A program made the translations under genes and the position numbers. 64,000 nt of DNA from Escherichia coli (lineage in GTDB: Bacteria > Pseudomonadota > Gammaproteobacteria > Enterobacterales > Enterobacteriaceae), in assembly GCF_003334335.1 (NCBI RefSeq), contig NZ_QOWQ01000012.1. One strand, 5' to 3'. Below are positions 50,727 to 51,336 of this stretch, in pieces. Position 1 is the first letter of the stretch; each line of letters opens with the position of its first letter. The notes beneath the pieces were generated by a model. That model was given only the letters and a program-made list of their open reading frames with translations, did not search any database and was not told where the DNA came from.

Positions 50727-50734
50727 GCGACGTT

Positions 50735-50758
50735 AACCCTCTCCGCCCGGAGAGGGTT
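50735..50758. terminator. hairpin at the ybaY/atl convergent junction
   Basis: Near-perfect palindrome AACCCTCTCCG-cc-CGGAGAGGGTT overlapping the atl stop codon; no clear U-tail on either strand. Confidence 0.4.
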
Positions 50759-51146
50759 AGTAGTTCCAGCGATAACGCTGCAAGTCGATTTGCCCGCTTC
50801 CCGATACCATCACACCTTCTGCCAGTAATGCCTGTCGCTGACGCTGTAAATCCGGTCCGGTTAGCGAAATTGTGCCGTGGCGATTAACCACCCGGTGCCA
50901 GGGTAAGGTGCTGCCTTCAGGGAGACGCTTTAACACACCGCCCACCTGGCGCGCGGCGCGGGGCGATCCCGCCAGTTTCGCCACATCACCGTAAGTGGTG
51001 ACATAGCCTTCGGGAATAGCGGCGACGATTTGCCAGACGCGTTGGGGAAATGAATCTTCTTTTTCCATCTTTTCTTCCTGAGGTAATTTTTCAGCATAAT
51101 CTGGAAAAACGCCCGAGTGAAGTCGCATTGCGCAAGAAACCAGCAT
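50757..51146 (-). CDS. atl: alkyltransferase-like protein (inactive O6-alkylguanine-DNA alkyltransferase homologue)
   Basis: Internal ATG gives 129 aa starting MLVSCAMRLHSGVF; motif PWHRVVN has Trp where the catalytic Cys of PCHRV sits in Ogt/Ada; formerly ybaZ. Confidence 0.9.
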   Translation of the reverse strand: MLVSCAMRLHSGVFPDYAEKLPQEEKMEKEDSFPQRVWQIVAAIPEGYVTTYGDVAKLAGSPRAARQVGGVLKRLPEGSTLPWHRVVNRHGTISLTGPDLQRQRQALLAEGVMVSGSGQIDLQRYRWNY

Positions 51147-51222
51147 CTGGCACGCGATGGGTTGCAATTAGCCGGGGCAGCAGTGATAATGCGCCTGCGC
51201 GTTGGTTCTCAACGCTCTCAAT

Positions 51223-51336
51223 GGGGGCTCTGTTGGTTCTCCCGCAACGCTACTCTGTTTACCAGGTCAGGTCCGGAAGGAAGCAGCCAAGGCAGATGAC
51301 GCGTGTGCCGGGATGTAGCTGGCAGGGCCCCCACCC
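51223..51336 (+). ncRNA. ffs: 4.5S RNA, the signal recognition particle RNA
   Basis: 114-nt sequence GGGGGCTCTGTTGGTTCTCCCGCAACGC...GGCAGGGCCCCCACCC recognised in full, including the conserved SRP domain IV segment GGTCCGGAAGGAAGCAGCCAAGGCAG. Confidence 0.97.

Follow-up and report, generated by a model that had tools for sequence, protein, structure and literature searches.

The window, a 64,000-nucleotide stretch of Escherichia coli DNA, encodes on its minus strand the alkyltransferase-like protein (ATL) Atl, also named YbaZ, in which a tryptophan stands at the position of the catalytic cysteine of O6-alkylguanine-DNA alkyltransferases (AGTs). Its translation very probably starts 78 bases downstream of the start annotated in the reference genome, which would give a protein of 103 rather than 129 amino acids. 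Taken together, the ATL identity, the functional role and the short start form the best explanation of this locus, and we hold this combined reading with high confidence. The original prediction had presented atl as known biology that can be read directly from the sequence, and this is borne out: the gene is already well characterised, and the link that ATL proteins form between direct-reversal-type damage recognition and nucleotide excision repair (NER) has been established since 2005–2010 for several of them, E. coli Atl and S. pombe Atl1 included. The only additions here are the probably misplaced reference start, already put right by PGAP, and, by the promoter of the neighbouring gene ffs, a conserved block of non-coding DNA.

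Tryptophan in place of the acceptor cysteine

The 801-bp stretch around atl shares 100% DNA identity with E. coli K-12 MG1655, and the atl region was found in 5425 of 5426 complete E. coli genomes. The ybaZ gene (b0454, "DNA base-flipping protein") lies at 475982..476371 of NC_000913.3, which corresponds exactly to 50757..51146 (minus strand) of the window; this interval is E. coli K-12 ybaZ/atl. The neighbours lie in the order tesB (−), ybaY (+), atl/ybaZ (−), ffs 4.5S RNA (+), ybaA (+) and pdeB (−), and 76 nt separate the annotated atl start (51146) from ffs, for which an Rfam match (RF00169, 68.1 bits) was obtained at 51231..51327. The minus-strand open reading frame 50757..51146 translates into 129 amino acids plus a stop, and residue numbers below refer to this form unless 103-aa numbering is named. 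The coding features and the RNA neighbour are as follows:

50811..51050, minus strand: PF01035 domain (AGT C-terminal DNA-binding; 6-O-methylguanine DNA methyltransferase DNA-binding domain), residues 33–112 of the 129-aa form
50991..50993, minus strand: codon of Tyr52 (Tyr26 in 103-aa numbering), equivalent to Atl1 Tyr25 in the alignment with 3gva
50949..50951, minus strand: codon of Arg66 (Arg40 in 103-aa numbering), equivalent to Atl1 Arg39 in the alignment with 3gva
50883..50903, minus strand: PWHRVVN motif, residues 82–88, standing where AGTs carry PCHRV
50898..50900, minus strand: TGG codon of Trp83 (Trp57 in 103-aa numbering), replacing the acceptor Cys of PCHRV
51223..51336, plus strand: ffs, 4.5S SRP RNA (NC_000913.3 annotation), a neighbour outside atl

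The original prediction had noted PWHRVVN in the place of PCHRV, which is read directly at residues 82–88, and had taken the tryptophan to replace the catalytic cysteine. Alignment with Ogt (sequence from NC_000913.3) and the C-terminal part of Ada agrees with this, as the acceptor column of Atl holds Trp and the Cys that would have contradicted the claim is absent. By BLASTP, Atl is 37% identical to E. coli Ogt over 82 gapless residues (E 6e-15), with Trp83 opposite Cys139, and 37% identical to Ada over 63 gapless residues (E 2e-11), with Trp83 opposite Cys321. A three-way MAFFT alignment of Atl, Ogt and Ada recovered the same Trp/Cys column, flanked by invariant P82, H84, R85 and V86, and in a phmmer comparison with the PDB 'lPWHRVv' paired with 'vPCHRVi' of M. 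tuberculosis OGT, so that Trp83 again lies opposite the cysteine. Judged from these alignments and the Pfam domain match, PWHRVVN is far beyond a chance motif. The conserved 103-aa core of Atl contains zero cysteines.

PF01035 was the sole domain detected in Atl by Pfam (E 5.1e-27, model positions 2–81 of 81), and Atl is a single small domain of 103–129 aa; the N-terminal domain of AGTs was not found by Pfam, and the pairwise alignments begin only at Ogt residue 89 and Ada residue 270. Among the NCBIfam models, only the superfamily model TIGR00589 (ogt) was passed (53.2 bits against a cutoff of 46.4), and the scores stayed far below the cutoffs of the Ogt equivalog NF007626 (44.3 vs 192) and the Ada equivalog NF011964 (37.1 vs 345). 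The phmmer ranking was headed by ATLs (2kif, 102 bits; 3gva, 67 bits), with any AGT at 42 bits or less and the true AGTs in the PDB at E 6e-10 or worse. The helix-turn-helix region is kept, Tyr52 and Arg66 are invariant with Ogt and Ada, and of the AGT Glu-His-water-Cys network Atl still has Glu110 and His84; Leu75 aligns with the Asn hinge of Ogt 'GSNP' and Ada 'AANK' in the three-way alignment. In PMC10779285, Tyr25 of Atl1 is described as the tyrosine that flips the base, Arg39 as the arginine finger and Trp56 as the residue standing in for the active-site Cys. At every feature that can be tested from sequence, Atl thus has the character of an ATL and lacks what defines an active AGT. Because the acceptor Cys, the Asn hinge, the N-terminal domain and the core cysteines are all missing, Atl is not expected to accept alkyl groups by the AGT mechanism. 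Matches of 50% identity to solved ATL structures already fix the fold.

Two readings at odds with a functional ATL were weighed, and both have next to no chance of being right. One takes atl for a catalytically active O6-alkylguanine alkyltransferase, the third AGT of E. coli, as its membership of the TIGR00589 superfamily, the retention of His84, Arg85 and Glu110 of the active-site network and the name "methyltransferase" in some database records could suggest. However, the alignments place Trp at the acceptor site of a Cys-free core, on which ground this reading was rejected; Leu75 replaces the Asn hinge, the N-terminal domain is missing, and transferase activity is absent from E. coli ATL even after the W→C change that turns PWHRV into PCHRV (PMC10779285). 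The missing Asn hinge seen here is consistent with the reported insufficiency of that change. The other reading, in which atl is a decaying AGT relic without function, could appeal to the loss of the catalytic Cys and the N-terminal domain, but it is contradicted by strong purifying selection on the core. Between E. coli and Salmonella, the differences in core codons 27–129 fall 11:6:53 on codon positions 1:2:3, with 13 of 103 residues changed, and further comparisons with Salmonella or Citrobacter gave 13:4:47 and 10:2:51 (8–13 of 103 residues changed overall). Orthologues of 80–90% identity, flanked by ybaY and tesB, occur in eight other genera of Enterobacteriaceae (Salmonella, Citrobacter, Enterobacter, Klebsiella, Kluyvera, Buttiauxella, Lelliottia and Leclercia), which together with the near-universal presence of the region in E. 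coli genomes and published phenotypes (PMC6449902) also speaks against a relic. The pseudogene reading was rejected on the codon-position substitution pattern and the conservation; by the same pattern, atl is a functional gene, with its core under purifying selection. There is no counter-argument to the ATL identity of atl.

The motif is conserved with limited variation among the 120 closest homologues, in which PWHRV occurs in 99, PWYRV in 10, PWFRV in 7 and PRHRV in 2; the last two are P0056, with PWHRVM, and P0063, apparently an assembly error. Phe or Tyr therefore takes the place of the motif His in 17 of the 120, including P0078 (Kluyvera), P0117 (Lelliottia) and P0049, and Phe does so in vpAtl (2kif, PWFRV); His84 is thus dispensable in orthologues, in keeping with a non-catalytic pocket. 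Arg in place of Trp was seen in two Logan-derived sequences, P0081 and P0084, the latter also with apparent assembly errors.

The translation start of atl

The annotations of the start conflict on an identical K-12 sequence: RefSeq/PGAP gives a gene of 312 nt and 103 aa at 50757..51068, and NC_000913.3 gives 129 aa starting at 51146. The original prediction had placed the gene at 50757–51146; the gene itself and its stop end stand, and the start at 51146 probably does not, the ATG at 51068 being the likelier one. The features that bear on this choice are:

50757..51068, minus strand: most probable extent of the atl/ybaZ CDS, 103 aa plus stop with ATG at 51066..51068 (PGAP; conserved ATG with GGA(G); pattern 11:6:53)
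51069..51146, minus strand: 26-codon N-terminal extension of the 129-aa form (NC_000913.3), probably untranslated 5′ UTR/promoter DNA
51074..51079, minus strand: Shine–Dalgarno-like AGGAAG, 5 nt upstream of the 51068 ATG, with its AGGA core 7 nt away
51129..51145: conserved non-coding block, TGCTGGTTTCTTGCGCA on the minus strand, 17–33 nt upstream of the ffs −35
51162..51190, plus strand: ffs promoter-like site, −35 TTGCAA at 51162..51167, 17 nt spacer, −10 GATAAT at 51185..51190, divergent from atl

Several lines of evidence point to the ATG at 51068. The modal length of the homologues is 103 aa (47 of 120), and in the homologue alignment the residues before Met27 align poorly with indels, whereas those after it are ~85–90% identical. 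The anti-Shine–Dalgarno duplex before the 51068 ATG (−4.3 kcal/mol) is the best of the four candidate starts, though only moderate, and the Met27-equivalent ATG with its preceding GGA(G) is conserved in nine genera, the GGA being invariant in seven genera. Upstream of it, Enterobacter hormaechei and Lelliottia carry in-frame stops six codons and one codon away, respectively, Kluyvera has CTG where E. coli has the 51146 ATG, and an in-frame start was not found in the upstream frame of Klebsiella. Both vpAtl and Atl1 begin at the Met27 position in the phmmer alignment. On these comparisons, atl translation very probably starts at the 51068 ATG and yields 103 aa. The longer starts TTG 51167 (136 aa), ATG 51146 (129 aa) and ATG 51128 were considered and rejected, being without a Shine–Dalgarno sequence and unconserved.

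It is unlikely, with only a slim chance by our estimate, that the 129-aa form starting at 51146 is the true product, or that Escherichia, Salmonella and Citrobacter produce both the 129-aa and the 103-aa form. The NC_000913.3 annotation uses this start, the frame is open for 33 codons, with equal length and an ATG at the same position in these three genera, and the first six codons look conserved. However, in the E. coli–Salmonella comparison the substitutions in the extension fall 11:6:7 on the codon positions and 13 of 26 residues (~50%) differ, compared with 11:6:53 and 13% for the core; further comparisons of the extension gave 7:5:6 and 10:7:7 (9–13 of 26 residues changed overall). Such an even spread over codon positions within the 26-codon extension is typical of non-coding DNA. 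The first codons, 'MLxSCA', look conserved because they coincide with the block 51129..51145, which is kept even where it is non-coding: 13 of its 17 columns are invariant across seven enterobacterial genera, including genera in which it cannot form part of the atl reading frame. Furthermore, no Shine–Dalgarno sequence precedes the 51146 ATG (duplex +0.6 kcal/mol), and this codon is so close to the ffs −35 (16 nt) that an atl promoter could not fit in without overlapping ffs. The stops in Enterobacter and Lelliottia, the CTG in Kluyvera, the starts of the Vibrio and S. pombe ATLs and the PGAP call of 103 aa all weigh against the longer form as well.

With the short start preferred, the reference K-12 annotation (129 aa) probably over-extends atl by 26 codons into the atl–ffs intergenic/promoter region, and the 78 nt between 51068 and 51146 would be leader/promoter DNA common to the divergent ffs promoter. 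The shift affects residue numbering (Trp57, not Trp83), construct design and the way in which variants upstream of ffs are interpreted.

The flanking DNA of atl

The hexamers of the ffs promoter-like site are well conserved across genera, with 5 of 6 bases invariant in TTGCAA and 6 of 6 in GATAAT. The position of the site and the mature 5′ end at 51223 would give a leader of ~24 nt, consistent with RNase P processing; 4.5S RNA has a leader of ~24 nt that is processed by RNase P. On the minus strand, a promoter scan found no sigma-70 promoter for atl above threshold. A weak candidate could be picked out by eye at ~51089..51117 (TTCACT, 17 nt spacer, TATGCT), which is only partly conserved and is not claimed as the atl promoter.

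We consider it a doubtful though specific possibility, with a small chance of being correct, that the block 51129..51145 is a regulatory element common to the divergent promoters of atl and ffs, such as a UP-type or activator site that acts on the 4.5S RNA promoter and also governs transcription of atl; as a still less likely variant, a lineage-specific 129-aa isoform could also be made in Escherichia, Salmonella and Citrobacter. If the block were such a regulatory element, expression of the DNA-damage sensor would be coupled to expression of the SRP RNA.

In a Salmonella ChIP study, a peak of MarA/RamA/SoxS was attributed to 'ybaZ' and its marbox given as GCCCTGCCAGCTACA (PMC10268841). This marbox corresponds to 51304..51318 of the window, inside ffs itself, and is identical in E. 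coli. The 'ybaZ' peak may stem from the high transcription of ffs and not from regulation of atl. The adjacency of atl and ffs is broken in two of the compared genomes, by a 135-aa ORF without a Pfam match in Klebsiella (L009 1028..1435) and by a gene for a 146-aa GNAT acetyltransferase in Lelliottia (L012 1057..1497), so that ffs lies ~600–700 nt further off in both.

At the other end, the gene runs into a hairpin that lies between it and the convergent ybaY:

50734..50759: perfect 11-bp hairpin, TAACCCTCTCC GGGC GGAGAGGGTTA, between the convergent ybaY and atl, including the atl stop TAA at 50757..50759

This hairpin (−19.7 kcal/mol, z −3.0) fills the 30-nt gap between ybaY and atl. It has no U-tract, and a consensus scan detected no intrinsic terminator downstream of atl. 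In PMC12288877, ybaY-ybaZ is given among the convergent excludons of E. coli. In some E. coli database entries the protein is eight residues longer at its C-terminus (YPSPGGEG in P0003, SPSPGGEG in P0027), as loss of the stop codon and read-through into the hairpin would produce.

Damage recognition and comparison with known systems

What is said here about the function of Atl draws on a review of 2023 and on secondary citations of earlier work (Pearson 2005, Tubbs 2009, Rill 2020, Mazon 2010, Aramini 2010). Alkyltransferase, glycosylase and endonuclease activities are all absent from E. coli ATL in vitro, the affinity of ATLs for O6-alkylguanine DNA is nanomolar or better, ATLs bend DNA by ~45 degrees, and E. 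coli ATL binds UvrA (KD ~100 nM) and UvrC and co-translocates with UvrA (PMC10779285). In the citing passages of PMC7835731 and PMC6449902, Mazon et al. 2009 and 2010 are credited with showing that the ybaZ product boosts NER of O6-alkylG adducts and prevents toxicity mediated by mismatch repair (MMR); PMC6449902 specifies, from Mazon et al., that eATL promotes NER and, at larger O6-alkylG adducts, prevents MMR from cycling futilely. Atl would accordingly bind O6-alkylguanine in DNA tightly, flip the base into its pocket, bend the DNA and leave the alkyl group in place, and it would then recruit UvrA, together with UvrC, for removal of the lesion by NER, while larger adducts would be shielded from futile mismatch repair. 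Binding without repair followed by hand-off to NER is supported as the accepted mechanism by literature on this same protein.

It is conceivable, though distinctly the less probable view, that the main role of Atl in vivo is to shield O6-alkylG:T/C sites from MMR, or to compete with Ogt and Ada, and not to deliver lesions to NER. The protection from MMR-mediated toxicity for which PMC6449902 cites Mazon et al. 2010 would accord with shielding, and inhibition of a methyltransferase by E. coli ATL, as worded in the title of Pearson et al. 2005 in the reference list of PMC10779285, would accord with competition. The direct binding of UvrA, the co-translocation with it and the reported enhancement of NER (PMC10779285) nevertheless argue against either as the main role. 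Sequence analysis does not discriminate between NER delivery and shielding, and the two roles would complement each other more than strictly exclude one another. Delivery to NER remains the preferred reading of the main role.

Compared with known systems, the gene described here is that of E. coli Atl/YbaZ (eATL, b0454) itself, with sequence and coordinates identical to the reference and the likely start codon (103 aa vs 129 aa in NC_000913.3) as the sole difference. The best match among solved structures is vpAtl of Vibrio parahaemolyticus (2kif/2kim; E 1.8e-28), which aligns end to end with residues 31–128 and has the same one-domain architecture with Trp at the Cys position, but differs in its PWFRV motif, where Phe replaces His, a change to Phe or Tyr also seen in some enterobacterial orthologues. 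S. pombe Atl1 (3gva, 3gx4, 3gyh; E 1.7e-17) has the PWHRV motif in common with E. coli Atl, and its Tyr25, Arg39 and Trp56 correspond to Tyr52, Arg66 and Trp83, only one off from the 103-aa numbering. It differs from the E. coli protein by short insertions around the C-terminal loop; its Arg69 pairs with Thr96 and its Pro50 is offset by one residue from Pro76, and as a eukaryotic protein it feeds eukaryotic NER. Ogt and the Ada C-terminal domain are homologous through PF01035 (37% identity over 63–82 residues) and have the Tyr, the Arg finger, P-x-HRV and Glu110 in common with Atl. They possess the acceptor Cys, the Asn hinge and the N-terminal domain, whereas Atl has Trp and Leu at the first two and no counterpart of the third; Ogt and Ada perform stoichiometric repair, whereas Atl would sense damage without repairing it in this way.
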